DNA from: an uncultured virus (IMG/VR IMGVR_UViG_3300009376_000009)
Taxonomy: Duplodnaviria; Heunggongvirae; Uroviricota; Caudoviricetes
Reading direction: 5' to 3' (one strand)
IMG/VR virus record: IMGVR_UViG_3300009376_000009
DNA: 20,000 bases
The position numbers and the translations under genes are program-made. The notes beneath the pieces were generated by a model. That model saw nothing but the letters and a program-made list of their open reading frames with translations, had not been told where the DNA came from and ran no database searches. Below, one piece after another: positions 3,865 to 20,000 of the stretch. The stretch's first letter is position 1. The number at the start of each line of letters is the position of its first letter.

Positions 3865-4299
3865 TTAATCAGAGGATTTCAGACTACCACTCAGTTGCGC
3901 GGTAGTAGTGCCGCCAACCTTCGTTGTAGTGGCCTTTACCTTAAACGCGCTCCCTCCCTTTTCTTCTATCGCTCTAATGGCCTCAAGTGCCTGCTTCTCA
4001 AATGAGGTTAACTGCTTGTTGAACCTAACATCTTGAGTGCCTTGTTCCTTTTCGGGAACCCATGCAGGAATCGTATCTATCAGAACACGCAAGCAATCAG
4101 TTGCAACTAAAAACTTGATGGCGGATTCTTTTAGTGTAGTATCAGGCACATTGTCTGCTGTTCCACCAACATAACCCGCCGCACGTGTCTTTTTGTTGAC
4201 TTCGGCTGTCCGAATAGTGAGATATTCACTAATCGTATTCTCATTTAGTCCTCGTGGCCTATTGAGAAGGTCACGAATCTGTGCTGTCGTTACCGCCAC
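3865..4299 (-). CDS. Putative head-tail adaptor / head completion protein
   Basis: Track ORF 3865..4335; more likely GTG start at 4299 after GGTGGGG RBS. Predicted helical, begins VTTAQIRDLL-x8-ISEYL like SPP1 gp15/HK97 gp6-type adaptors, and sits downstream of the capsid gene. Confidence 0.6.
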   Translation of the reverse strand: MAVTTAQIRDLLNRPRGLNENTISEYLTIRTAEVNKKTRAAGYVGGTADNVPDTTLKESAIKFLVATDCLRVLIDTIPAWVPEKEQGTQDVRFNKQLTSFEKQALEAIRAIEEKGGSAFKVKATTTKVGGTTTAQLSGSLKSSD

Positions 4300-4633
4300 T
4301 ACCCCACCTACTATCGTAATCCGATGGAACATCAATGATTACAGCGTCATTTGAAGGTTTGTTCGTCCTATCCAATACCAAAACAAGCCTTGAGCCAACA
4401 ATGGCGTGAGCCATCATGCTATTTGGAAGCCAATACAGTTTCGTTCTATCATCAAGAAGCGTAATAGGATGGTTTGCGTGTTGAGTAGAAGGGTTTCGTA
4501 GAAGTCGGACTAAAAACCCATCTCCACTTAACCAATGCTTGAGTCTGTGCTGCATATCAGCGACTTTGGCGGAAGGAGGCATAGGAATCCCCGCCTTCTT
4601 CATCTTAGATGCTAATTCGGCCTTCGTAACCAT
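4271..4633 (-). CDS. Hypothetical protein with N-terminal HeH/SAP/LEM-like motif
   Basis: 120-aa ORF. N-terminus TKAELASKMKKAGIPMPPSAKVADMQHRL fits the helix-extension-helix pattern often seen in phage head modules. Confidence 0.6.
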   Translation of the reverse strand: MVTKAELASKMKKAGIPMPPSAKVADMQHRLKHWLSGDGFLVRLLRNPSTQHANHPITLLDDRTKLYWLPNSMMAHAIVGSRLVLVLDRTNKPSNDAVIIDVPSDYDSRWGSGGNDSTDS

Positions 4634-9623: not shown

Positions 9624-11015
9624 TTAGTCAACATTTCCATCATAATCTTCGTTTCCGGGCTGAGAGTTTTCCAAAGGTGTTTCGCCAACGTTTGCAGGCT
9701 CTAAGTCCTTCCTTTCATCTCCATCTGCTTCAAGGGGTAGATTCAACATATCAAGAGTTTGATTTAGGGTTAAGATACCGTTACTGTAACCCAATACTGC
9801 TCTCTGCATAACATTCAATGGGGTTTCGCTATCCATCGCGTCAAATCGAATTACCGGCAAATCTTGTCTGCGGTATGGAATATTGAGTAAATCCAAGTGA
9901 ATGCCGAAAAGGGCTATGCAGGCTTCTCCAAGAATCTTGTGCATTCGACTAATCGCTTGAACAGCCCATAGATTAGCATTGAAAGTCGCAGCGAAGGTGC
10001 TTCCGCGCTCCTGTCCTGCGGCCACACGCGGCACTTGAAGCACAGCCGCAATATCTGCGTTTATTGCGTCTAAAAAGTCGCTACTGTTAGGCAGGGAGTT
10101 TTCCAAGTCTACATGATGCAATTCTACGTAGTGGGGAAGGACAGGGATTTGGTCGCCTCGTAGACCTTCAAAGAGCGATATTACCTCGTCCATAATGTGA
10201 GTTAGTCGTTCATTCTGTTCTGCGGGGTCTTGAATATGCTCAATCGCCTCCTTGTTAATCGTAATGAATTGCTTGGTCATTGAGTCCTCAAGCGACAGTC
10301 GGTTATTCATCGAGTTATACTTCATGCGTATGGCTTGCTTTAGGGCCGAGAATCGAGAAGCACCCCAAATACCGTAAGTTTTCCGTCCTCTGTTATCCAC
10401 GAACCAATTGCTGCGGTAATCAATCTTGATATGCAGAATCTCGTTAGCAGGGATTTCCTTAGCATTAAGTTTCATTTCCCTTAACAAATACTTCGTGGCT
10501 CTCGTTATGGGATTGTCTTCTGTCGCATCGAAAATAGAATCTATCCCGCCTCTTTCGTCTACAATAGTAATCTGCTTAACAGGAAGGTTCTGTAAGTCAG
10601 TAATACCGACTCCTGCCTTTCCGACTATCTTATTCACATCGTTCCCATATACCATCATGTTTCTCATGGCGTTGATGAGAATATCATCGAAATCAATGCG
10701 CTCTTCTACCAATTCACGTATAGCATCTCTGATTTGAGCGTTCTTCCCCTTCTCGTAGTTTACTTCGTAGTTATTGGCTGTGAGCGATACCGCACGAACA
10801 GCCCCATTCAATTCAGGGTCAAGTTTCAGCATCAAGTCATACATATCAAACTCGTTGTCGTAGTTACTATCGCTCTGTAACCTCTCTGTATCTCGCATGA
10901 CGTCAGGAATACCCGCAACAGCGCGAAAACTCTTATTCGTAGGGATTCTACCGCTTGCGGTCTGCCTCTTTGGTTCGCTTCTCCAAAACTGATACCATTT
11001 CGGCCCTTCTACCAT
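9624..11015 (-). CDS. Portal protein
   Basis: 463 aa. DPELNGAV, MMVYGN, EILHIK, YGIWGASRF, IAAVLQVP and GILTLNQ motifs are typical of HK97/lambda-type portals. First gene of the head operon. Confidence 0.88.
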   Translation of the reverse strand: MVEGPKWYQFWRSEPKRQTASGRIPTNKSFRAVAGIPDVMRDTERLQSDSNYDNEFDMYDLMLKLDPELNGAVRAVSLTANNYEVNYEKGKNAQIRDAIRELVEERIDFDDILINAMRNMMVYGNDVNKIVGKAGVGITDLQNLPVKQITIVDERGGIDSIFDATEDNPITRATKYLLREMKLNAKEIPANEILHIKIDYRSNWFVDNRGRKTYGIWGASRFSALKQAIRMKYNSMNNRLSLEDSMTKQFITINKEAIEHIQDPAEQNERLTHIMDEVISLFEGLRGDQIPVLPHYVELHHVDLENSLPNSSDFLDAINADIAAVLQVPRVAAGQERGSTFAATFNANLWAVQAISRMHKILGEACIALFGIHLDLLNIPYRRQDLPVIRFDAMDSETPLNVMQRAVLGYSNGILTLNQTLDMLNLPLEADGDERKDLEPANVGETPLENSQPGNEDYDGNVD

Positions 11016-11343: not shown

Positions 11344-12828
11344 ATGGGGGCGGAACCTGTCGCTGGTGGCTATACGGGCCGCACCAAGTTTGTCGGCGGA
11401 CAAGACCTAATTGAGAAGTTTGCTCAAGAACGAGCATTTGCGAGCGAAATGGACTTTGCTCGATTTTTGCATGAAATTGAGCCGAGGCGAAGCGTTAGTG
11501 GTTGGCGTGCTGCTATCAGTAGATGGAAAATGGAGGATAAGAAGAACATCTTCCAAATCCCTCCTGATGAATACAGCGAAACAACCCCCTCGCGTATACG
11601 TGTTTACCACGACAAGGCAAATGACGTCTATCTGACTATGTTGGATAATGCAAATGAGATGATTGCTGTTAGTGGCGAAACACACAGGGAAATGAGAAAA
11701 GCATACTCCAAAGATGGCTCTAATCTCAGTATGAGGGAAATGAGCCGTGAGTTTGGCTTCCCCGAATCATGGGTTTACGAATACGTCAAAATTAACCGAT
11801 GGAATCACCAAATGGATATTCACACCGATGAAGAGATTCAAAATCGGTCAGAAGAAGACCTTGTTCAAGAAATTGTAGATACTAAACGGAATATAGTCTT
11901 GGAAAAGGCTAATCGAAAATATTGGCGTGAAATATCGAAAGATGCCGACAGAATGCGTCTTCTTGACGATTATCTGCTGAATGAGTTTAGAGAAGCACTA
12001 AAAACGCAGAATCTTGCTCCTAAAAAGGTCACAAAACTGAAAATGGCGAAAGCAGAGCCATTTGCGGTGGTAATTTCCCCTACCGACCTTCATTTCGGTG
12101 AAAAGTGTTGGGTAGACGAAACCGGCAACGAATATGATACCGAAGAAGCCCGATTGAGGCTTCTTGATAGGACTGAGAACCTAATTTCTCGACTTCCGGG
12201 TCGTCCTGAGAAGATTTTTCTTGCTACGGGTTCTGATTGGTTCCATGTTGATAATCCACAAGGTTCTACAACGAAAGGGACGTTACAGGATATGTCTACG
12301 ACCCCAACTCAAATCTTCATGGATGGTTGTCTATTGGCGAGAGAACATATTGAGTTGCTGAGAAAGGTTTCTCCTGTTGAAGTGGTTTTTATGCGAGGTA
12401 ATCACGATAGACACATGGCTTTGGCTCTGATGATGTATCTTAGTGCGGTTTACGAGAATACTGATGACGTAAAAGTAATATGCAACCCAATGATACGTCA
12501 ATATCTTACATGGGGTAATAATCTGCTTGGCTTTACGCATGGTGATGGGGTCAAAGGTAATGATTTGCCTCTTCTTATGGCTACTGAGGAACGAAAGGCT
12601 TGGGGTGATTGCGAACACCATACTTGGTTTCACGGACACCTGCACCACATGAAGTTAACTGAGAAGGGTGGAACGACTGTTGTTCAATTACCGAGTTTGG
12701 CGGGAAATGATAGATGGACGTTTAGTAAGGGGTATACTGACTCAAGACCGGGGATTTGCGCCCATCTTCTCGACAAGGACTTAGGGTTAATTGGTAACCT
12801 ATTTGCTCCGGTGATTTTGGATGAGTAG
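11344..12828 (+). CDS. Calcineurin-like metallophosphoesterase with N-terminal HTH-containing region
   Basis: All five metallophosphoesterase motifs are present: DLHFG, GSDWFH, GNHD, HGD, GHLH. HTH-like LSMREMSREFGFPESWVYEYVKINRW in the N-terminal part. Confidence 0.85.
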   Translation: MGAEPVAGGYTGRTKFVGGQDLIEKFAQERAFASEMDFARFLHEIEPRRSVSGWRAAISRWKMEDKKNIFQIPPDEYSETTPSRIRVYHDKANDVYLTMLDNANEMIAVSGETHREMRKAYSKDGSNLSMREMSREFGFPESWVYEYVKINRWNHQMDIHTDEEIQNRSEEDLVQEIVDTKRNIVLEKANRKYWREISKDADRMRLLDDYLLNEFREALKTQNLAPKKVTKLKMAKAEPFAVVISPTDLHFGEKCWVDETGNEYDTEEARLRLLDRTENLISRLPGRPEKIFLATGSDWFHVDNPQGSTTKGTLQDMSTTPTQIFMDGCLLAREHIELLRKVSPVEVVFMRGNHDRHMALALMMYLSAVYENTDDVKVICNPMIRQYLTWGNNLLGFTHGDGVKGNDLPLLMATEERKAWGDCEHHTWFHGHLHHMKLTEKGGTTVVQLPSLAGNDRWTFSKGYTDSRPGICAHLLDKDLGLIGNLFAPVILDE

Positions 12829-14323
12829 TTTCAATACTGATTTTGCTATGGCGCGTAGTCGTACTGATGTGAAATATTTCTACCGATGGCTTGGTTATAC
12901 GTGGGGGGAGCATATTGGCGAATGGATGGAGATGTATGGGGCGCGTGATGATTCCTCTGTTCATCGTGTTTGCGTAATTGCTCCACGTGACCACAGCAAA
13001 TCTACTACTCTGCGGGTAAAACTACTTCACTCTGCTCTTTTTGAGAAGTGGCGTAACAAACCTTTCACCTGTTGGCTCTTTTCAGCAAGCAAGGACTTGG
13101 CTATGCGACGTTTGGAGGAAATTAGGGAGGATATGAAGCGTCACCCTCAACTCAGTAAGTATCTCAATACGAAAAGAGGCAACAAACTTGAATTACATTT
13201 CAATAACGGGGCATGGATTCGTGCTACTTCGGTTGGAGCCGCTATTCGTGGGGAGCATCCCGCCTGTATTGCATTTGATGACGTTCTTGACGATATGGGC
13301 GATATGGATTGGACGAATATTCGACATTGGTTCCGAAAGAAGGTCACTCCTATGCTTAGTCCCGGCACTTCCATATATGTCGTCGGCACACCGATGAGTA
13401 TGGTAGACCTATACCATAGCGAGATGTTACAGAATGAGGCTTGGAAATCAGGCGTATGGTCGAGTATTCCTAATTGGGATGAATACAAATCAAATCCCGA
13501 TATAGAACCGGAAGCACTTTGGCCTGAGTTTAGGCCCATCAAGTTTCTTTTAGAGCAAAAGCAAGCGATGGGAGAGTTGGCGTTTGTGCAGGAATATCTG
13601 TGTAAAGTGGTTGATGATGAAGCGGCTGTTTATCCACGTAATCTGACTCGTAGAAACCTCAATATGGACGCGGTCTTTGAAAATGAGAAGTTAACCAACG
13701 ATAAGTATGCGATAGGTTTCGACCCTTCTCATGGTTTGGGTCAAGATTACAGCGTCATGGTTTGTTTGAGGCAAGATTCTGATGGGTATATTCACCTTTG
13801 TAATATTTGGCGACGAAATGACTTCCCTCCTTCTCGACAAGCCGACATGATGATTGATTGGAATAAGCGATACGGGACTCCTGCCTTCGCTGTTGAGTCG
13901 GTGGGCTTCCAACAACTGTACGAGAGTCTACTAACTCAGAAAAATGCTGGTATTGACTACCGTGAGAGCAAAGTGAGTAATAGGACGATGAAGCAAGGTC
14001 TTCTTAATCGAATGCGCGTGTGGTTTGAGCGCGAATTGGTCTGCTTTCCCTATGGAGATGATTTCACAAGGAAAACCATGAATATTCTGTTAGAGGAACT
14101 AGAGCATCATGCTTGGAGGGACGGTTTAATCGAAGATTTGGCTCGTCATAACGACTGTGCTATGGCTTTGGCTCATGCACTTGACCAATTCAGTTATAAG
14201 ACGCCCGCGTCGCCTGTAATTATGAAAACGATGAAGAAAGGCGAATGGGTTGGTGGTTCTACACGTCCTCAACGGACTGAAACTTCGGGTGTTGGTGGTA
14301 AAGTAATACGGAGGGTTGATTGA
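12821..14323 (+). CDS. terL: Terminase large subunit
   Basis: 500 aa. Walker A variant APRDHSKST, Walker B CIAFDD, coupling motif VVGTP, FVQEY, and RNase H-like nuclease motifs IGFDPS, DYS, HNDCAMA. Confidence 0.92.
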   Translation: MSSFNTDFAMARSRTDVKYFYRWLGYTWGEHIGEWMEMYGARDDSSVHRVCVIAPRDHSKSTTLRVKLLHSALFEKWRNKPFTCWLFSASKDLAMRRLEEIREDMKRHPQLSKYLNTKRGNKLELHFNNGAWIRATSVGAAIRGEHPACIAFDDVLDDMGDMDWTNIRHWFRKKVTPMLSPGTSIYVVGTPMSMVDLYHSEMLQNEAWKSGVWSSIPNWDEYKSNPDIEPEALWPEFRPIKFLLEQKQAMGELAFVQEYLCKVVDDEAAVYPRNLTRRNLNMDAVFENEKLTNDKYAIGFDPSHGLGQDYSVMVCLRQDSDGYIHLCNIWRRNDFPPSRQADMMIDWNKRYGTPAFAVESVGFQQLYESLLTQKNAGIDYRESKVSNRTMKQGLLNRMRVWFERELVCFPYGDDFTRKTMNILLEELEHHAWRDGLIEDLARHNDCAMALAHALDQFSYKTPASPVIMKTMKKGEWVGGSTRPQRTETSGVGGKVIRRVD

Positions 14324-14643
14324 TGCCGAGTAGAGAGCAACGGCTGAAGAAGTTTAATCGGCAAGACCCATCTGTACGTAGACATGGGCCTAAAAAGCGT
14401 CGCGTTGTCTACAAAGAGGCCATTGAGAAGATTCTCCTGAACGAAGGTAATGAGTGGCTTACTGCCGACGAAATTGCTCACAAGGCCAACAATTTCATTT
14501 CCTCTTATTGGACTCAACTCAATACTCACAGCGTTGCTGCTATACTTCGGATTTATGAGAAGGACAAGATTATTGAGTCTAAAAGAATGTTGGCGACTCA
14601 ACCTAAGCGGTATCGCGTCATAGATTCTGAAAAACTATTTTGA
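14323..14643 (+). CDS. Putative winged-helix DNA-binding protein
   Basis: ATG overlaps the terL stop (TGATG) with GGAGG RBS. Basic N-terminus; IEKILL..WLTADEIA..SVAAILR..KDKIIES..KRYRV fits the wHTH pattern. Confidence 0.65.
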   Translation: MPSREQRLKKFNRQDPSVRRHGPKKRRVVYKEAIEKILLNEGNEWLTADEIAHKANNFISSYWTQLNTHSVAAILRIYEKDKIIESKRMLATQPKRYRVIDSEKLF

Positions 14644-14753
14644 AAAAAAATGTTGAAAATCGTTTGAGGGGGTAGGCATTGGATATAGAGATAGGCGGTG
14701 CAGATTTGGAAGCGCCGCAGTACAGCGTTTTTCGTGATTTTTCAATTGCACGG

Positions 14754-14760
14754 CCTTAAG
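14754..14760 (+). promoter_or_regulatory. TATA-like box (CCTTAAG) for the GC-rich plus-strand block
   Basis: Ends 23 nt upstream of ATG 14784, preceded by T-tracts. Confidence 0.5.
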
Positions 14761-14783: not shown

Positions 14784-15659
14784 ATGTCTACATCAGTAGT
14801 ACTAGGAGTTGAAGCAAGCGCGGGCGTACCTGCGCGAATGATTGCCTGCCGTGAGGCGCTGGATGAGGCCGGCGCATCGGCAGAGTGGAGGGCTGCTCTC
14901 GGAGAGCGCACAGGCCTACGGGCCGACCTTCCAGACTGCACGACCCTATGGGGTTGGGCGCAGAGGGCAGGGCGTGAGATGCTCAGGGTCGTCTTCACAG
15001 ACGGCAGCATTCACGACGTGGCCCACGCTGGCGACCTGAACGTGGCCCTCATCGAGAGCCACTTTGCCCGGTCTGTCTACGACAGCACCGGCTCAGACGG
15101 CGAGGGCGGCAGGGTCTACCGGGAGGTCACCCTTGACGGAGTGGTAGAGCGCACCACCGACAGGCAGACCACGTACACCGACTTGACCCTGACGACGAAG
15201 GAGGCTCAGGCCTGCCCCGCCGAGACATGCGGCGGCTGGCTGCACCCGGTCACCTTCACCTGTGGACGCTGCGGCGGCAACTTCCCGGAGGGAGGCGAGG
15301 TCGGAGTCCGAGAGGACGTAGCGAACCGGTACGAGCCGAAAGTCAAGGGCTTCTACCACATCGTCTTCGGTGAGAACGGCGAGGCCGTGAGCCTCACACC
15401 CCGAACCCTGACCCGCAGGAAGGGCAGCGACAAGGCCGGACTCAACCCGGAGTCGTGGGAAATCTTCGCTCGCTGGGAGCGCGGCGGCAAGCCGGCATGG
15501 GCGCAGCAGGCATTCGGCCTCGTGGCCGTGCAGGGGAACGACGGCACAACCTTCCTCCCGGTGGCCTTCCACCGAGAGCAGGCAGCAGCAGCCCGCGAGT
15601 GGGGCATCACCATTCAGGGCAACGGCCCGAACATGGGAATCAGGGAGGTGACGGAGTAG
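14784..15659 (+). CDS. Hypothetical protein with central zinc-ribbon motif
   Basis: 291 aa, CPAETC...CGRC, strong GC3 bias, upstream promoter and downstream hairpin. Confidence 0.75.
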   Translation: MSTSVVLGVEASAGVPARMIACREALDEAGASAEWRAALGERTGLRADLPDCTTLWGWAQRAGREMLRVVFTDGSIHDVAHAGDLNVALIESHFARSVYDSTGSDGEGGRVYREVTLDGVVERTTDRQTTYTDLTLTTKEAQACPAETCGGWLHPVTFTCGRCGGNFPEGGEVGVREDVANRYEPKVKGFYHIVFGENGEAVSLTPRTLTRRKGSDKAGLNPESWEIFARWERGGKPAWAQQAFGLVAVQGNDGTTFLPVAFHREQAAAAREWGITIQGNGPNMGIREVTE

Positions 15660-15663
15660 GCGC

Positions 15664-15697
15664 GGAGTGGGGGCCGCCTTCGGGCGGCCTCCCTCCC
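15664..15697 (+). terminator. GC-rich cUUCGg-tetraloop hairpin after the gene
   Basis: GGCCGCC-TTCG-GGCGGCC (15672-15689) immediately after stop 15659. No U-tract, so it may be a stability/processing hairpin instead. Confidence 0.55.
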
Positions 15698-15730
15698 AAC
15701 GCCGAAACGTTTTGTAACGGAGGTGAGAAG

Positions 15731-16321
15731 ATGAGCAAGCGAAGCGAGAACGAGCGCCGGAAATCCGGCATCCCGGTGAAGCCGAAGCCGACCCCGGAGG
15801 GGAAGGACGGCGGCAGAACGAACGAGAAGATTGGCTCGGTCGCAGACCGGCCCCACGTCGGCATACCGCTAACGCCGAGCCGAGAGCGCAGGATGATTGA
15901 CCTAGCGATTGAGTATTGGGACCACGACATGAGGGGGTCACCGTGCCTAGACGCAACGGCGACCTACTTCGGCATCAGACACCTGCTGCACTTCATGACT
16001 TCGATGAAGGACTTCCTCAGAGCCATGAGGAAGGGCGGCCACACCATCAGGCAGCGCACGAGCCTCATCCGCAAGAAGCCCTACACGGTGCAAGAGTTTT
16101 GTAACAGGCTAGACAGCATCCTCAACCGGGCGCAGGCCCACCACGAGGGGCGCGTTCCTGATGCGTGGGTCTTCACGACCCGCCACATCTACGAGGGCGA
16201 CGAGAGCCACACGCACCACATTCACGCCACCGACACGCACGGCAGAGTTGTGGTTGATACGGCCCCGATGGGGAGCAACGACGACCGAGAGGTCACAGGA
16301 GTTTGGGGGGTGTGGTCTTGA
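15731..16321 (+). CDS. Hypothetical protein, possible papain/C39-like Cys-His-Asp fold
   Basis: 3' part of track ORF 15455..16321; ATG 15731 follows GGAGGTGA RBS. Motifs PCLDATATYFG and HIHATDTHGRVVVDT. Confidence 0.65.
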   Translation: MSKRSENERRKSGIPVKPKPTPEGKDGGRTNEKIGSVADRPHVGIPLTPSRERRMIDLAIEYWDHDMRGSPCLDATATYFGIRHLLHFMTSMKDFLRAMRKGGHTIRQRTSLIRKKPYTVQEFCNRLDSILNRAQAHHEGRVPDAWVFTTRHIYEGDESHTHHIHATDTHGRVVVDTAPMGSNDDREVTGVWGVWS

Positions 16322-16491
16322 GCGAGAGTTTTGTAACGGTTGTCTACCAACTCCCGCAGCCGCACACCGGCTTCAGATGTTTTGTAACGGAAGTTCCCGA
16401 TGGGATGAGATTCGTCATGCCTACATGGGTGGGCTTCGATGGCTTCTGCCTCGGAGTCGCAATAGGGGGTGAGATTGATGGCGAGGGCTAA
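16318..16491 (+). CDS. Small hypothetical protein (57 aa)
   Basis: TTG start overlaps the upstream TGA, GGGGTG RBS, fills the operon gap, and encodes two motif copies as FVT. Confidence 0.5.
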   Translation: MSESFVTVVYQLPQPHTGFRCFVTEVPDGMRFVMPTWVGFDGFCLGVAIGGEIDGEG

Positions 16492-16633
16492 GTGCGACAA
16501 GAATGGATGCAACTTCGCCAACGCGAGAAGGGTGAAGCGTCACCCATTCAAGATAAAGAAAGGCGACTTGCACCGCGTCCCGATAGTTCGGTCTTGCCGG
16601 ATTTGTGGGCGGTACTTGGTGGTGAGGCCATGA
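16478..16633 (+). CDS. Small basic zinc-finger-like protein (51 aa)
   Basis: Not in the track. MARAKCDKNGCNF...RSCRICGRYLVVRP, GGGGTGAG RBS, and its stop overlaps the next ATG (ATGA). Confidence 0.7.
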   Translation: MARAKCDKNGCNFANARRVKRHPFKIKKGDLHRVPIVRSCRICGRYLVVRP

Positions 16634-16809
16634 GTGACGAAGAACGTTTTGTAACGGAGGGATTTACCTTCGATACCTACGCGGGCCGTAAGGGTGCATG
16701 GGTTAAAGCGACCCGGTGCGTATGCCCCTACTGTGAAGCCGACAACATGACTGTTGAGATAATCGAGAGGGTTGACCCTGACCCTGTGGAAGAAGAAGGG
16801 CAAGAATGA
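16630..16809 (+). CDS. Small acidic protein with CPYC motif (59 aa)
   Basis: 3' part of track ORF 16492..16809; ATG 16630 follows GGTGAGG RBS. Confidence 0.65.
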   Translation: MSDEERFVTEGFTFDTYAGRKGAWVKATRCVCPYCEADNMTVEIIERVDPDPVEEEGQE

Positions 16810-16833
16810 ATGTTTTGTAACGGAGGTATGTGT

Positions 16834-17169
16834 ATGGATATAGACAACATGAACACCGAGCAGTTAGTTGCTTGGTTCGTGGACTACCAGCGCAGGCACA
16901 CCGGCACAGGGTCAGGGACGAGTATGAGGGAGGCTGTGAAAGCACTCTTTTTCGCGTCCCGAAGTGTAGACGCGAACGTTGGGGCTGTATGGTCCCAACT
17001 GCTCGCGGACGACGCTGCTCTGAACCGCGTGATGCAGATGCTATGGAACCACGAGCCGGAGCCGCTAATCAGCGACGGAGCCTACCCTGAGTTGAATCTG
17101 ATTGGGACTGACGCCCCTGACGATTCGGTTCGGGTTGCAGGCGCGTTCCTACCACGCAGGCTGCTCTGA
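16834..17169 (+). CDS. Hypothetical protein (111 aa)
   Basis: Track ORF 16810..17169; GGAGGT RBS favours ATG 16834. Confidence 0.7.
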   Translation: MDIDNMNTEQLVAWFVDYQRRHTGTGSGTSMREAVKALFFASRSVDANVGAVWSQLLADDAALNRVMQMLWNHEPEPLISDGAYPELNLIGTDAPDDSVRVAGAFLPRRLL

Positions 17170-17210
17170 TTGAGTAGGGACGTTTTGTAACGACATGGGG
17201 ATTACGTAAG

Positions 17211-17273
17211 CCCCCGCCTCTTGACTCAGGGGGGCGGGGGTGGGCTACCAGCCGCGAGGCTCGCGTTTTTTTT
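17211..17273 (+). terminator. Two GC-rich hairpins plus T8 tract ending the plus-strand block
   Basis: CCCCCGCCTCTTG/CAGGGGGGCGGGGG (G-U pairs work on +), then CGCGA-GGC-TCGCG followed by TTTTTTTT at 17266-17273. Confidence 0.65.
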
Positions 17274-17453
17274 CGACAATATATCTCCCGTTACAAAACG
17301 TTTTTAGCCTGCCCGTTACAAAACGTTGGGGCGTTACAAAACGTTAGAGAGAGAGCGCGTTACAAAACGTTAGAGAAAGAGAACGTTACAAAACGTTCGT
17401 TAGAGAGAGAACGTTACAAAACTTGAGAGAGAGAGAGCGTTACAAAACGTGGT

Positions 17454-17485
17454 GGGCAGGCCGGCGTTGCAGCACCGGCCCGCCC
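17454..17485 (-). terminator. GC-rich hairpin downstream of the 17502 gene, bracketed by two motif copies
   Basis: GGGCGGGCCGGTG...CGCCGGCCTGCCC on the minus strand; mismatches resolve as G-U only on minus. Confidence 0.5.
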
Positions 17486-17501
17486 TTGCGTTACAAAACG
17501 A

Positions 17502-17663
17502 TTACTCGTCGTCTTGCTCGATTGGCTGGTAGCGACCTGCGCCCTTGACGAATCCGACGAACTTCCAAAGCGAAGCGAGAGGGAAGCCCCACTCGTTCTT
17601 CTCGTTTTCGGGTATGTCGTCCTTCGTAGGCATCCTGCCGCGTGCTGCTTGGGTTGGTTCCAT
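17502..17663 (-). CDS. Small hypothetical protein (53 aa)
   Basis: Track ORF 17502..17696; ATG 17663 lies 21 nt after TTCATAAG. Confidence 0.65.
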   Translation of the reverse strand: MEPTQAARGRMPTKDDIPENEKNEWGFPLASLWKFVGFVKGAGRYQPIEQDDE

Positions 17664-17684
17664 GATACACCCTATACGCCGCCC

Positions 17685-17714
17685 CTTATGAACCACACGG
17701 CTCCGTTACAAAAC
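17685..17714 (-). promoter_or_regulatory. Promoter cassette GTTTTGTAAC-N10-GGTTCATAAG
   Basis: Same architecture as at 18295-18324, 19176-19205 and 19851-19880. Confidence 0.8.
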
Positions 17715-17841
17715 GTTTACTACCACCTTCCACCGTTACAAAACGTTAGTGTTACAAAACGTTAGAGAGATTTGTAACGTGAGTAATGTTGTTTCTGGAC
17801 TCGCGCCGAAGGCGCGAGAGAGAGAGAGCGTTACAAAACGC

Positions 17842-18273
17842 TCAAGCATCGTCCATCTCACTCCACGAAATGTCTACCTTGACTATGCACACGTGCGGCG
17901 CAGCATCGGGGTGGTAGTCGTCTTTCTCCCAAGTAGCCATGACCCGACTGAGGATGAAGGCCATGATTAGCCGACCCGTTTCGATGATGGATTTCATGCT
18001 GAACGTCTGCCCCATCTGCTCTTCGTTAGCGGGGGTGCGTCCCATTTGGAAGGTGAAGGAATCGCCCGTCTTCTCCATCCATGCCTTGAGTGCCTCCTGC
18101 GGTAGTGCGCCGTCGAAGGGCATCAACCCTCCACGTGCGAGGACTCTCTGAGTGTGCTTCACCCACTCGTCTGACCCCTCAACGGGTGTCTGTCCCGGCA
18201 TTCTGATATTCCCTGTTCTACCCTTACCTCTGCGGCGGAAGCGCCATGACCGAGGGTCGTCCTTCTTGCTCAT
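17842..18273 (-). CDS. Hypothetical protein (143 aa), basic N-terminus
   Basis: ATG 21 nt after TTCATATA; a motif copy lies 2 nt after the stop. Confidence 0.75.
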   Translation of the reverse strand: MSKKDDPRSWRFRRRGKGRTGNIRMPGQTPVEGSDEWVKHTQRVLARGGLMPFDGALPQEALKAWMEKTGDSFTFQMGRTPANEEQMGQTFSMKSIIETGRLIMAFILSRVMATWEKDDYHPDAAPHVCIVKVDISWSEMDDA

Positions 18274-18294
18274 AGTCAGTCATCTTGGCCGTCC

Positions 18295-18324
18295 TATATG
18301 AACCTGTGGCTCCCGTTACAAAAC
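18295..18324 (-). promoter_or_regulatory. Promoter cassette GTTTTGTAAC-N10-GGTTCATATA
   Basis: Fixed 10-nt motif-to-box spacing and 21 nt to ATG 18273. Confidence 0.8.
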
Positions 18325-18416
18325 GTTTCTACCCGTTACAAAACGTTCGTTACAAAACGTTAGCGTTACAAAACGTAGAGAGAGAGATTTGTAACAGAGG
18401 ATATATTGTCGGTGTG

Positions 18417-18588
18417 CCTACCGAGAGAGCATGGAAACAAGACACAACTCGCGGGTCGTGACGTTACAAAACTCTCTCGGCAGGACTTGAATGGTGCAAC
18501 GTCACTATGGACGTGACCCGCGAATCCTGTGTTACAAAACGTGGTGGTCGCCCCCCGGACGGCTCATCAAGAAACCGAGGGGGCAACC
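18417..18588 (-). ncRNA. Candidate structured RNA (long pseudoknot or two-state fold plus upstream hairpin)
   Basis: Helices of 6+10+11 bp and a crossing 13-bp helix. All non-Watson-Crick positions are G-U on minus and A-C on plus. No convincing ORF. Confidence 0.55.
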
Positions 18589-18610
18589 CCGAAAAACTCC
18601 GTTACAAAAC

Positions 18611-18772
18611 CTATCTACTCAACTCGACTATCACTTCCTCTTCTTCTCTCCATTGAGTTACAAAACATTCTGCTGGTGGCGGCAGCGCGAGCGTTACAAA
18701 ACTTACCTCACGGAATTGGTCAGCCAAATCACGAAGCGCCCAATACGTTACAAAACATGGAATGCTACTCAT
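18611..18772 (-). CDS. Small hypothetical protein (53 aa) encoding three motif copies as FVT
   Basis: Not in the track. MSSIPCFVTYWALRDLADQFREVSFVTLALPPPAECFVTQWREEEEVIVELSR, GGTGAGG RBS, overlaps the upstream stop, and its own stop abuts a motif copy. Confidence 0.55.
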   Translation of the reverse strand: MSSIPCFVTYWALRDLADQFREVSFVTLALPPPAECFVTQWREEEEVIVELSR

Positions 18773-19154
18773 CTTCTTCCTCACCTACCTCAAGTGTTTC
18801 AAGTGCGTTGTGGAGCATTCTCGCCTGTCGGCTCGCCTGCTCAACGAATACTCTGTTCTTCTCGATTGCGAGGCCGCTTTTGATGCTGTCTTTGGTCCCT
18901 CTGACTCCGTTACAAAAGTCTACCCAATCCCGTACCATCGTGGCTATGTGCGGTGTGAAACCTAGTACTGCTCTCATTTGTGCGATATGAAGGCGTACTG
19001 CGGTCACTACATGAGCGCACTTCTCGCATACATCACCTTCAACGAGGGGGTGTCCTATGTTCCTCTGTCCGTCTTGAATCCTACCTAGCCTGCCTTCGCA
19101 TCCTGTGTGGGATGCTGCAAGCCCGAAGGCGCATAGGCCGTCTGTTCCGTCCAT
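18765..19154 (-). CDS. Hypothetical protein with N-terminal Cys-rich (Zn-binding-like) region
   Basis: 129 aa, C..C...GHPLVEGDVCEKC..VTAVRL; ATG 21 nt after TTCATATA. Confidence 0.75.
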   Translation of the reverse strand: MDGTDGLCAFGLAASHTGCEGRLGRIQDGQRNIGHPLVEGDVCEKCAHVVTAVRLHIAQMRAVLGFTPHIATMVRDWVDFCNGVRGTKDSIKSGLAIEKNRVFVEQASRQARMLHNALETLEVGEEEDE

Positions 19155-19175
19155 GATACGCTCATCCTATGGGGG

Positions 19176-19205
19176 TATATGAACCTGTGGCTTCTGTTAC
19201 AAAAC
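19176..19205 (-). promoter_or_regulatory. Promoter cassette GTTTTGTAAC-N10-GGTTCATATA
   Basis: Fixed 10-nt spacing and 21 nt to ATG 19154. Confidence 0.8.
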
Positions 19206-19332
19206 GTTGGGGTCCGTTACAAAACGTTGCTGTTACAAAACGTTGGCGTTACAAAACGTTGGTGTTACAAAACTTACAGAGAGAGAGCGCCGTTACAAAA
19301 CTTAGAGAGAGAGAGAGGCGTTACAAAACCCA

Positions 19333-19360
19333 CCCCCACCGGAGATTTCCCCGGCGGGGG
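19333..19360 (-). terminator. GC-rich hairpin downstream of the 19381 gene, bracketed by two motif copies
   Basis: CCCCCGCCGG...CCGGTGGGGG on minus with one G-U pair. Confidence 0.5.
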
Positions 19361-19380
19361 CTTACGTCCCGTTACAAAAC

Positions 19381-19809
19381 CTAACCCTCGTCGGGCAAGT
19401 CATCGGTCTGCATGGCGTTGTGACGGATTTGAAGTTGCGCCAAGTTTAGCACGCCTTCCAAAACGACAGCAGCGAAGCGGCGAGGCATCTGCCTTCTCAT
19501 TCCCAACTCACGCTTGATGCTGGTTATCGCGCCGCCGCCTTTGCCGGTCACTCGCATATCGCTGGTTCCCCCGCCAAAACGAATCTCTTGCTCAACCATC
19601 GTCAGTATCAGTCCGTAGCGGTATGGTACTGTTCCGCCTGCTGCGCTCGCTGCAACGACCATATCAACGGCCTTGCGGACACCAAGCACGCCTTCATCGA
19701 ACTGCTGCGATAGTACTACTTCTTCGTCCGGGTTACCGTCCTCATCCATAGTAGCCATGCTAGCACATAGTCCAAGCCCGTCCGGGCTTACAAAGTCTGT
19801 TATGTCCAT
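19381..19809 (-). CDS. Hypothetical protein (142 aa)
   Basis: Track ORF 19381..19839. ATG 19839 is only 11 nt from the TATA box, whereas ATG 19809 has a GGAGG RBS inside the predicted leader. Confidence 0.75.
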   Translation of the reverse strand: MDITDFVSPDGLGLCASMATMDEDGNPDEEVVLSQQFDEGVLGVRKAVDMVVAASAAGGTVPYRYGLILTMVEQEIRFGGGTSDMRVTGKGGGAITSIKRELGMRRQMPRRFAAVVLEGVLNLAQLQIRHNAMQTDDLPDEG

Positions 19810-19850
19810 TCGTATCTCCCTCCTATTACAATTTTTCATACTCGCCCCCC

Positions 19851-19880
19851 CTTATGAACCCCACGACCCTGTTACAAAAC
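19851..19880 (-). promoter_or_regulatory. Promoter cassette GTTTTGTAAC-N10-GGTTCATAAG
   Basis: Fixed 10-nt spacing; preceded by a four-copy motif array (19871-19946). Confidence 0.75.
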
Positions 19881-20000
19881 GTTCCGAGCCTGTTACAAAA
19901 CGTTTGCGTTCTCTGTTACAAAACGTTAGAGAGAGTGTTACAAAACTCTGTTCTCCGCCGAAGGCGGAGAGAGAGAGAGAGGCCCGCCGAAGGCGGGCCG

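Follow-up and report, generated by a model that had tools for sequence, protein, structure and literature searches.

The window analysed here, a stretch of 20,000 nucleotides from an uncultured tailed ocean virus of archaea, carries behind its terminase gene a block saturated with copies of a short word, a pattern that suggests viral gene control of an undescribed kind. Judged from the sequence, the copies are probably clustered sites for a transcription activator that is itself likely viral, a reading to which we give a probability of about 0.55. The gene content of the window fits a group C member of the magroviruses, which infect uncultured marine archaea and are abundant. In group C the structural module carries an inserted gene of the PolD-exonuclease-like (calcineurin-like) type (PMC5434244); in the window, a calcineurin-like phosphoesterase gene (11344-12828, plus strand) with Metallophos_2 and PHROG exonuclease hits, a match at the exonuclease level, lies between the portal gene (9624-11015, minus strand) and the gene for the terminase large subunit (12821-14323, plus strand). 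The remaining traits, tested as in Philosof 2017 (a PolB and clamp-loader module, no ligase, a GroEL-type chaperonin in some members), are seen among the relatives: ATP-dependent DNA ligase occurs in 0 of the 13 that are at least 90% complete, the relative G004 encodes PolB, an RFC-like AAA protein, Cpn60 and Cpn10, and the chaperonin family is present in nine genomes. A terminase scan of cellular genomes gave no provirus, a chaperonin scan gave only bacterial hits at 35-36%, and a scan for DUF932 hit nothing beyond its own record. The array block, 4-9 kb of short transcription units, is flanked by the terminase operon on one side and the replication genes on the other; term searches of published magrovirus work (PMC5434244, PMC10160649, PMC5332604, PMC11706807) turned up neither such arrays nor anything on transcription control.

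An exact search for GTTTTGTAAC finds 41 copies in the window, 7 on the plus strand (spanning 15709-17191) and 34 on the minus strand (17290-19946), against 0.03 expected by chance (mean of 200 shuffles, maximum 1). This agrees with the roughly 41 copies (7 and about 34) reported in the initial annotation, as does the switch of polarity, which falls at the meeting point of the converging gene blocks, between 17191 and 17290. With one mismatch allowed the total rises to 46, and a variant at 18909 is co-oriented within its gene. The structural 15.7 kb, which had been described as motif-free, is so for exact copies; it holds two one-mismatch matches (5198 and 12028) against 1.4 expected. Two GATTTGTAAC variants of inverted polarity, at 17769 and 18386 within the minus-strand arrays, were absent from the earlier list. 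An extended inverted repeat, CGTT-ACAA-AACG, had also been proposed and is present in the window, where CGTTTTGTAA occurs 26 times; the flank is not kept in the consensus words of relatives, and the 4-bp inverted flank is unsupported as a functional unit.

The arrays are not an assembly artefact, a concern raised earlier, because identical arrays are carried by other records and runs. By eye the G001 record, which may share the window's sample, has the same arrays; contigs of run X3, from the same study as the window's possible source, match 16279-19851, and contigs of run X5, from another study, match 16421-17899 and 18562-19291, in each case with 0 differences and 0 gaps. As a separate observation, contigs of two assemblies stop within one array.

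Directly behind the terminase gene, an HTH-like ORF (14323-14643, plus strand; labelled by eye, with no Pfam hit) is followed by a conserved non-coding element (GAGGGGGTAGGCA ... GCAGTACA.CGTTTTT, 14660-14735), seen in an alignment of five clade members, which forms the terminase-side edge of the block. A TATA-like CTTAAG (14755-14760, plus strand), motif-free upstream, lies 29 nt before the ATG at 14784 of a candidate motif binder, a Zn-ribbon protein of 291 aa whose C-terminal domain is beta-rich (14784-15659, plus strand). Seven single copies (15709, 16096, 16328, 16379, 16646, 16812 and 17182) are distributed along the plus-strand operon, two of them inside ORFs and those at 16328, 16812 and 17182 within 13 nt of a stop codon. 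On the minus strand the copies form arrays, the first of which (eight copies with AG-run spacers, 17290-17499) lies behind the last minus-strand gene and ends at the convergence point. That gene, a 53-aa ORF (17502-17663), has its TATA starting at 17692 with the ATG 29 nt on, likely giving a leaderless transcript, and the array beyond it (four copies and the inverted variant at 17769, 17705-17839) begins with copy 17705-17714, ending 12 nt before the TATA, and closes with copy 17830, 3 nt after the upstream stop. The arrangement is repeated at a 143-aa ORF (17842-18273, minus strand; TATA start 18302, ATG 29 nt on), where the array of seven copies and the inverted variant at 18386 (18315-18610, minus strand) has copy 18315-18324 ending 12 nt before the TATA. 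A doubtful 57-aa ORF (18611-18784, minus strand) holds three copies; the 129-aa ORF overlapping it (18765-19154, minus strand; TATA start 19183) is preceded by an array of eight (19196-19380, minus strand), in which copy 19196-19205 ends 12 nt before the TATA and copy 19371 follows the upstream stop by 1 nt. Finally, a 142-aa ORF with a GGAGG leader (19381-19809, minus strand) has its TATA 12 nt after copy 19871-19880, the first of four (19871-19946, minus strand) in an array that runs on past the window end in G001.

Two placement rules, both missed in the initial annotation, emerge from this layout. In the window clade, the distance from motif to TATA is exactly 12 nt in 53 of 62 pairs when an unconstrained scan allows 0-40, a figure to be read with the clade set having been partly gathered using a pattern that allowed 11-13 nt, a choice biased towards spacings near 12. 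Each of the window's four minus-strand promoters follows the rule, and in 43 of the 53 pairs the ATG lies 29 or 30 nt after the TATA start. The arrays yield a predicted promoter grammar for Marine Group II archaea, with TTCATAWR and a leaderless ATG 29-30 nt after the TATA start. Among 43 distinct motif-TATA spacers the mean identity is only 40%, so that length is kept while sequence drifts. The rule is clade-specific: spacing is 13-14 in G003, 19 or 30 in G010, 14 (from a reversed half-site) or 27 in G004, and variable in G016. The other rule concerns stop codons, nine of ten in the window being followed by a co-oriented copy 1-13 nt on; among the first copies in the window clade, 47 of the 54 that are co-oriented come within 13 nt of a stop, while 13 of 13 opposite-facing ones lie farther away. 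Copies thus occupy the gap before most units, starting right after the preceding stop and ending 12 nt ahead of the next TATA. Distances between other copies are loose, mostly 13-16 and up to 60. As genes were called by a simple script, which overlooked some and misplaced the start of others (15731-16321 was added by hand), the in-gene and post-stop counts are approximate; a sigma-70 promoter scan is irrelevant for archaea.

The arrays are group-wide, with the word differing by lineage. The terminase gene is followed closely downstream by the densest 9-mer cluster in 18 of 18 genomes or fragments, though weakly in three, and 15 of 18 reach at least 19 copies per 6 kb; in most genomes a word of 9-11 bp is present about 20-90 times within 4-9 kb. 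Among 113 other viral loci used for comparison, none reaches 30 copies and three reach 20, all through in-frame coding repeats. The conservation in relatives on which the earlier proposal depended is found for the arrays, though the word itself varies. That polarity follows transcription is true of the window (30 same, 0 opposite) and of G009 (19 and 0), and it fails in G004 (30 and 28) and G015 (30 and 26), as well as in G002 and L003, where polarity is uniform across genes of both strands and reversed inside terminase-side genes. Polarity with transcription is thus not universal, some relatives using palindromes or uniform polarity; in close relatives, the promoter-proximal copy is a full palindrome, GTTACAAAA-NN-TTTTGTAAC.

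The suggestion that a dedicated protein controls early transcription remains the best reading, and is strengthened by the fixed 12-nt TATA spacing, by the copies just after stops and by the retention of arrays in relatives; its HTH binder and general polarity rule are not supported. Gene content and position suggest that the genes of the array block are early. The word would be a half-site recognised by a regulator that binds DNA sequence-specifically and is most likely virus-encoded; the promoter-proximal copy may hold this regulator next to the BRE, where it would help TFB and TBP to load the host RNA polymerase. The remaining copies would raise occupancy and shield each unit from read-through, and the U4 run on their sense strand may in addition assist termination by the host. 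A single site, rather than 40-90, would suffice for activation, which also does not account for the copies inside genes in G002 (20 of 81) and G010 (18 of 89). Characterised archaeal viral activators are few (PMC5569661), and the arrays supply about 50 precisely phased candidate promoters. The lineage words also form a natural series for in vitro tests of binders without host culture, and a lineage-specific word flags the variable genome block in metagenomes.

Several known archaeal systems resemble this arrangement in part. A fixed-distance site just upstream of the BRE/TATA is shared with archaeal activator UAS elements (GvpE, PMC2241852; Ptr2 and TFB-RF1, PMC5569661), and GvpE activation requires a fixed UAS-BRE distance (PMC2241852); the window clade has such a distance and other clades have others. 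Those elements differ in having one or two sites per chromosomal promoter, no saturating arrays and a known binder. Halovirus HF2, likewise an archaeal tailed virus, has promoter-containing intergenic repeats in its early-middle region; its seven class I repeats, each 56-58 bp long, are spread over about 33 kb, and control by a virus-encoded regulator, perhaps a CxxC protein, has been suggested for them (PMC8707807). Unlike in HF2, the present arrays consist of about 20-90 short words, post-stop and in-gene as well, and lineage-specific; with the low spacer identity among the 43 promoters, a long (29-58 bp) conserved repeat over BRE, TATA and start is not found. SSV1 F55 and AFV6 AvtR are archaeal-virus regulators acting on repeated early-promoter sites, and AvtR spreads along DNA, both activating and repressing; those crenarchaeal viral systems differ in having few sites, those of F55 over the BRE and start site, and small RHH proteins (PMC5569661).

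Stoperator-like repression is the main rival, albeit an unlikely one: a viral repressor bound beside the BRE, behind stops and inside genes would switch the block off once the early phase is over or during a carrier state. The post-stop placement of co-oriented copies, the copies inside genes and the polarity of the window and G009 all suit it, as does the change of word between sister viruses (G010 and G018, G016 and G017), which recalls immunity specificities. The stoperators of L5 and other cluster A phages are, like the sites in the window and G009, numerous, short, asymmetric, intergenic and transcription-oriented, yet those phages are temperate with sites genome-wide (PMC9283540), whereas the present sites form one block and tyrosine integrase (PF00589, the only integrase type searched) was found in 0 of 13 records at least 90% complete. 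Moreover, the sites stand upstream of the BRE/TATA, not over it, at an invariant distance, many relatives have dyads, the layouts of G004, G015 and G002 are palindromic or of uniform polarity, and post-stop placement is absent in G003, G004 and G015. Less probable again is that the arrays mark the segment for entry, protection, packaging or replication in an iteron-, hr- or first-step-transfer-like manner, with promoter control secondary. The saturation of one contiguous block next to the terminase gene, coding DNA included, the uniform polarity in G002 and L003 and the conserved element at the block border are in keeping with such a mark, and baculovirus hrs are reported to be both enhancers and origins. 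Those hrs are arrays of partly palindromic sites that enhance viral promoters via a viral protein, IE1; they differ in being eukaryotic, genome-dispersed and position-independent, the present sites being clustered and phased to the TATA. An iteron origin consists of helically phased direct repeats in one short cluster; here several arrays extend over kilobases, and 1854 copy-pair distances show no 10.5-11 bp period. The 12-nt rule is also not predicted by a segment mark, 40 related contigs share no common position at which their ends accumulate, and contig depth has no clean two-fold step, a measure that cannot speak to terminal redundancy.

It is improbable that the binder is a host transcription factor recruited or titrated by the virus, with the words reflecting host genera. 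The same word does occur in distant branches (the window, G002, G010 and G019), none of 45 conserved viral protein families tracks the word in a residual-identity test, and SIRV1 promoters are reported to be acted on by the host activator Sta1. Against this, the word differs even between viruses 69-74% identical in replication proteins, and an exact-match search of metagenomes for the dyad and TATA pattern gave 30 loci, 27 with magrovirus-like genes, one on a short dense-array contig and two single array-free hits, with no archaeal-chromosome-like locus among them; when viral contigs were scanned with looser patterns, most hits were single and chance-like. Least probable of all is a by-product of promoter-cassette duplication and recombination plus slippage, with no dedicated binder. 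T4-type PeSL cassettes, in which an early promoter and a stem-loop are repeated between variable genes, would be the model for such shuffling, and it is true that the small genes between arrays vary from genome to genome, that AG runs number nine in the block and zero elsewhere in the window, and that in one contig of low depth 17732 is fused to 18333, linking two arrays. Hairpins also precede some arrays (15655-15725, z -3.5), yet what recurs is the word rather than a stem-loop, and the spacer keeps its length despite divergent sequences; isolated copies in orthologous genes of the window and G002 differ in position and are opposite in orientation. A structured-RNA reading of the arrays was set aside, three of them giving inconsistent z values (+1.95, -1.41 and -1.98).

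With regard to the putative activator's identity, the HTH-like ORF suggested initially has no profile match in G010, G008 or G011, which rules it out as a universal binder; G010, in which profile search did not find it, is 99% complete with 89 motif copies. Its likely recognition helix, compared by eye, does not track the motif. The Zn-ribbon protein is the best candidate, though a weak and tentative one. A positional counterpart stands at the array-block edge in most relatives, and clearly similar pairs (z at least 13) all share the motif core, G006 and G019 doing so at only 62% terminase identity. After removal of phylogeny, the co-variation of protein and word is not significant (partial rho 0.12, p=0.065), the remaining association could be due to both lying in one linked block, and G010 and G019 have TTTTGTAAC in common with the window while Zn-ribbon similarity is undetectable. 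A motif lies 1-11 nt before the gene's own TATA in G002, L003, G003, G025, G010 and G022, and none is present at that promoter in the window, G009 or L002.

An enhancer-like system of a kind not described in archaea may be envisaged, though we consider it rather doubtful: the Zn-ribbon protein would be made first from its motif-free promoter, coat the block of early DNA through its dozens of clustered sites and recruit the host's TBP/TFB from a phased proximal site, with protein and word changing together between lineages. Each lineage would then possess a private switch, not triggerable by co-infecting relatives, and the protein would be fast-evolving and lack a clear match among solved structures. 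It has no Pfam or PHROG family match; sequence searches with it gave four and eight relatives, a 70.5-kb contig also encodes it, and Atlas searches gave weak zinc-ribbon leads or nothing. Structure models (pLDDT 68 for the whole, 78.5 for the C-terminal part) had no match above Z 3.2 in the PDB, which shows neither a new fold nor its absence, and one viral model, A0A516M115, was matched (E 4e-6).

The window holds 41 exact copies of the motif GTTTTGTAAC, seven on the plus strand (15709-17191) and 34 on the minus strand (17290-19946), against 0.03 in shuffled sequence, which bears out the count made in the initial annotation. Allowing one mismatch adds two inverted variants within the minus-strand arrays and one in-gene variant, and yields two matches in the structural part of the window, a chance level. 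Contigs of two further runs, including one run from another study, carry the arrays without any difference, so these are not the assembly artefact that the annotation wished to have checked; the record G001 and the longest contig both terminate about 100-120 bases beyond the window end, within an array. Copies mostly follow one another at 13-16 nt with no helical period, and consistent RNA folding of the arrays was sought and not found; both observations suggest that the copies are independent sites on DNA. The simple-sequence filler between copies varies by lineage, being AG runs in the window (17280-20000) and the relatives G002 and G010, and CG runs in G004 (64000-72008) and G015. Two short window ORFs (16303-16491 and 18611-18784) are rich in the FVT tripeptide through motif copies and are perhaps not real genes; similar ORFs are present in G002 and the related locus L003.

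The window encodes portal, phosphoesterase and terminase, and relatives were gathered through the terminase (50) and through a conserved replication-module protein (80). None of the 13 records with a completeness of 90% or more (61-72 kb) has a tyrosine integrase or an ATP ligase. The genes of G004 include those for PolB, an RFC-like ATPase, GroEL/GroES and DUF932. Judged by gene content, not by a tree with published genomes, the virus and its relatives appear to fit the group C magroviruses of Philosof, as described in PMC5434244; the group is still without a formal name in PMC11706807. The densest 9-mer cluster was located in 18 genomes or fragments, and in every one it falls no more than about 11 kb downstream of the terminase gene. 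Fifteen of these clusters are strong, with 19-75 copies per 6 kb; those of G005, G018 and G020 are weak. Among 113 background viral loci, obtained by pattern scans and not at random and compared after 10 magrovirus-like ones were left out of 123, none reaches 30 copies per 6 kb, and the three exceeding 20 copies are all coding repeats. The arrays are real and group-wide, and apparently undescribed so far; a term search of four magrovirus papers, with Zhou et al. 2023 and supplements outside its scope, found no description of them.

The repeated word differs between lineages: GTTACAAAA in the window, G002, G010 and G019; GTTACATAA in G022 and G023; GGTTACAAT in G006; CTACAAA with varied flanks in G003, G004, G015 and G016; GGACAAAAA or GTACAAAAA in G008 and G018; AAATCCAAA in G017; CGGCCAAAA in G005; and CGACTAAT or GCGACTATT in G024 and G025. 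The layout of the block is common to the relatives, with small genes oriented back toward the terminase, most behind an array of their own. Past them comes a divergent point that leads into numerous small genes, DUF932 usually among them, and the replication module.

Copies run with transcription without exception in the window (30 with, 0 against), as the annotation had noted, and also in G009 (19 and 0). Polarity is biased in G002, G003, G010 and G016, but G004, G015 and G024 show none, and the in-gene copies of G002 and L003 have it reversed; it is therefore a clade trait and not a general rule. In the window block a co-oriented copy lies 1-13 nt downstream of 9 of 10 gene ends, and across the clade, in plain counts, the first copy follows the stop at 1-13 nt in 47 of 54 co-oriented cases versus 0 of 13 where the copy faces the other way. 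Read on the sense strand, the word opens with four U; according to PMC8716108, this unit is what aCPSF1 recognizes in Methanococcus. Since the words of other lineages have fewer U, and the post-stop rule is missing in G003, G004 and G015, a role of the U-run in aCPSF1-type termination would be at most a second use of the word.

At all four minus-strand promoters of the window the final copy ends 12 nt ahead of TTCATAWR; in three of them an ATG follows 29 nt past the TATA start, and the remaining one carries a GGAGG leader. With every copy counted and spacing unconstrained, the distance is 12 nt in 53 of 62 motif-to-TATA pairs of the clade, a set gathered in part with an 11-13 nt pattern, and the window, G002, L002 and L003, found independently of that pattern, also show 12 nt. 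The 12-nt pairs comprise 43 distinct spacers (mean identity 40%), and 43 of the 53 have an ATG at +29 or +30. The copy nearest the TATA box is mostly a 20-bp palindrome in G002 and L002, other palindromes occur in G003, G004 and G015, and the distance differs in other clades. Of the 30 loci recovered by a metagenome scan for the palindrome with TATA, 28 carry dense arrays. A site phased upstream of TATA is also the layout of archaeal activator sites, and for GvpE PMC2241852 reports that shifting the activator site abolishes activation.

The reading we favor, at a probability of about 0.55, is that a viral regulator would occupy the clustered half-sites and dyads, and that the protein at the proximal site would draw the initiation apparatus of the host to short transcription units that are probably early, much as an archaeal UAS multiplied into arrays. 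The dedicated regulator of block transcription suggested by the annotation thus survives as the best reading, without its proposed binder or its general polarity. Stoperator-style repression of the block, which the one-way copies of the window recall, is the leading alternative but an unlikely one; by the features tested the system appears to fall outside the stoperator, HF2 repeat and iteron families. That the arrays mark the segment, be it for entry, for packaging or for replication, would suit their confinement to one block, but beside the TATA phasing it is improbable. A host factor as the binder is less probable again; among the metagenome loci no host contig carried the exact dyad and TATA pattern, in a scan of exact matches with host genomes outside it. 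Least credible is an origin of the arrays as a by-product of recombination.

The HTH-like ORF (14323-14643, plus strand), which the annotation had put forward as the binder, is missing from G010, G008 and G011 by profile search and is not supported in that role. Nor did any conserved protein family prove to track the word. In most genomes the block is bordered on the terminase side by a gene of 196-466 aa whose product has a cluster of cysteines at its center; in the window this is the gene of the Zn-ribbon protein (14784-15659, plus strand). An alignment of twenty copies has a mean identity of 15% and three cysteines that never vary, so that homology is only partly shown, and protein models contain a Zn ribbon along with a beta-rich domain, with no clear match among solved structures. 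At several of these genes the motif abuts their own TATA, and similar proteins accompany similar words; a partial Mantel test of protein versus word fell short of significance (p=0.065), and in two genomes the window's word occurs without protein similarity. The Zn-ribbon protein is a candidate binder only.

Between the HTH and Zn-ribbon genes lies a conserved non-coding element (14660-14735), found also in G002, G009, L003 and L449, and GCAGTA-like words can be seen by eye at the corresponding position of G004, G006 and G022; the element is possibly a packaging or late-control site. A 196-aa ORF kept across the window clade (15731-16321) combines Cys (SPCL), His (HIHA) and Asp in an arrangement reminiscent, by eye, of papain-like peptidases, with no Pfam match, and a capsid-region ORF (4271-4633), of a family in 15 genomes and likewise with no Pfam match, has a SAP/HeH-like N-terminus by eye. 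In the terminase genes of G019, G022 and G023 a single in-frame TGA interrupts the terminase match, which would reflect a split gene, frameshift or readthrough. The close relatives L007, L008, L010 and L011 (82-83% terminase identity) carry, in the fragments covered, palindromes that are sparser and of another sequence (CTAGTATATATACTAG, ACACTAAGTGT-like). Near some promoters of G002 (~26090 and ~27110), G020 and G010 (~46700-48300) lies a second word (ACGCTTGCG or CTTACGCTGCGCC-like); these promoters face the replication side and are possibly another promoter class. In the unrelated viral loci L221 and L124, GTTTAAACA or AACATATGT occurs 16 times in non-coding phase within 6 kb. Nine other unrelated elements (L052, L053, L054, L057, L059, L060, L070, L097 and L126) have a pair of direct CGTTACAAAACT-like repeats, separated by about 22 bp, in a conserved region close to the contig ends, perhaps as integrase arm sites.
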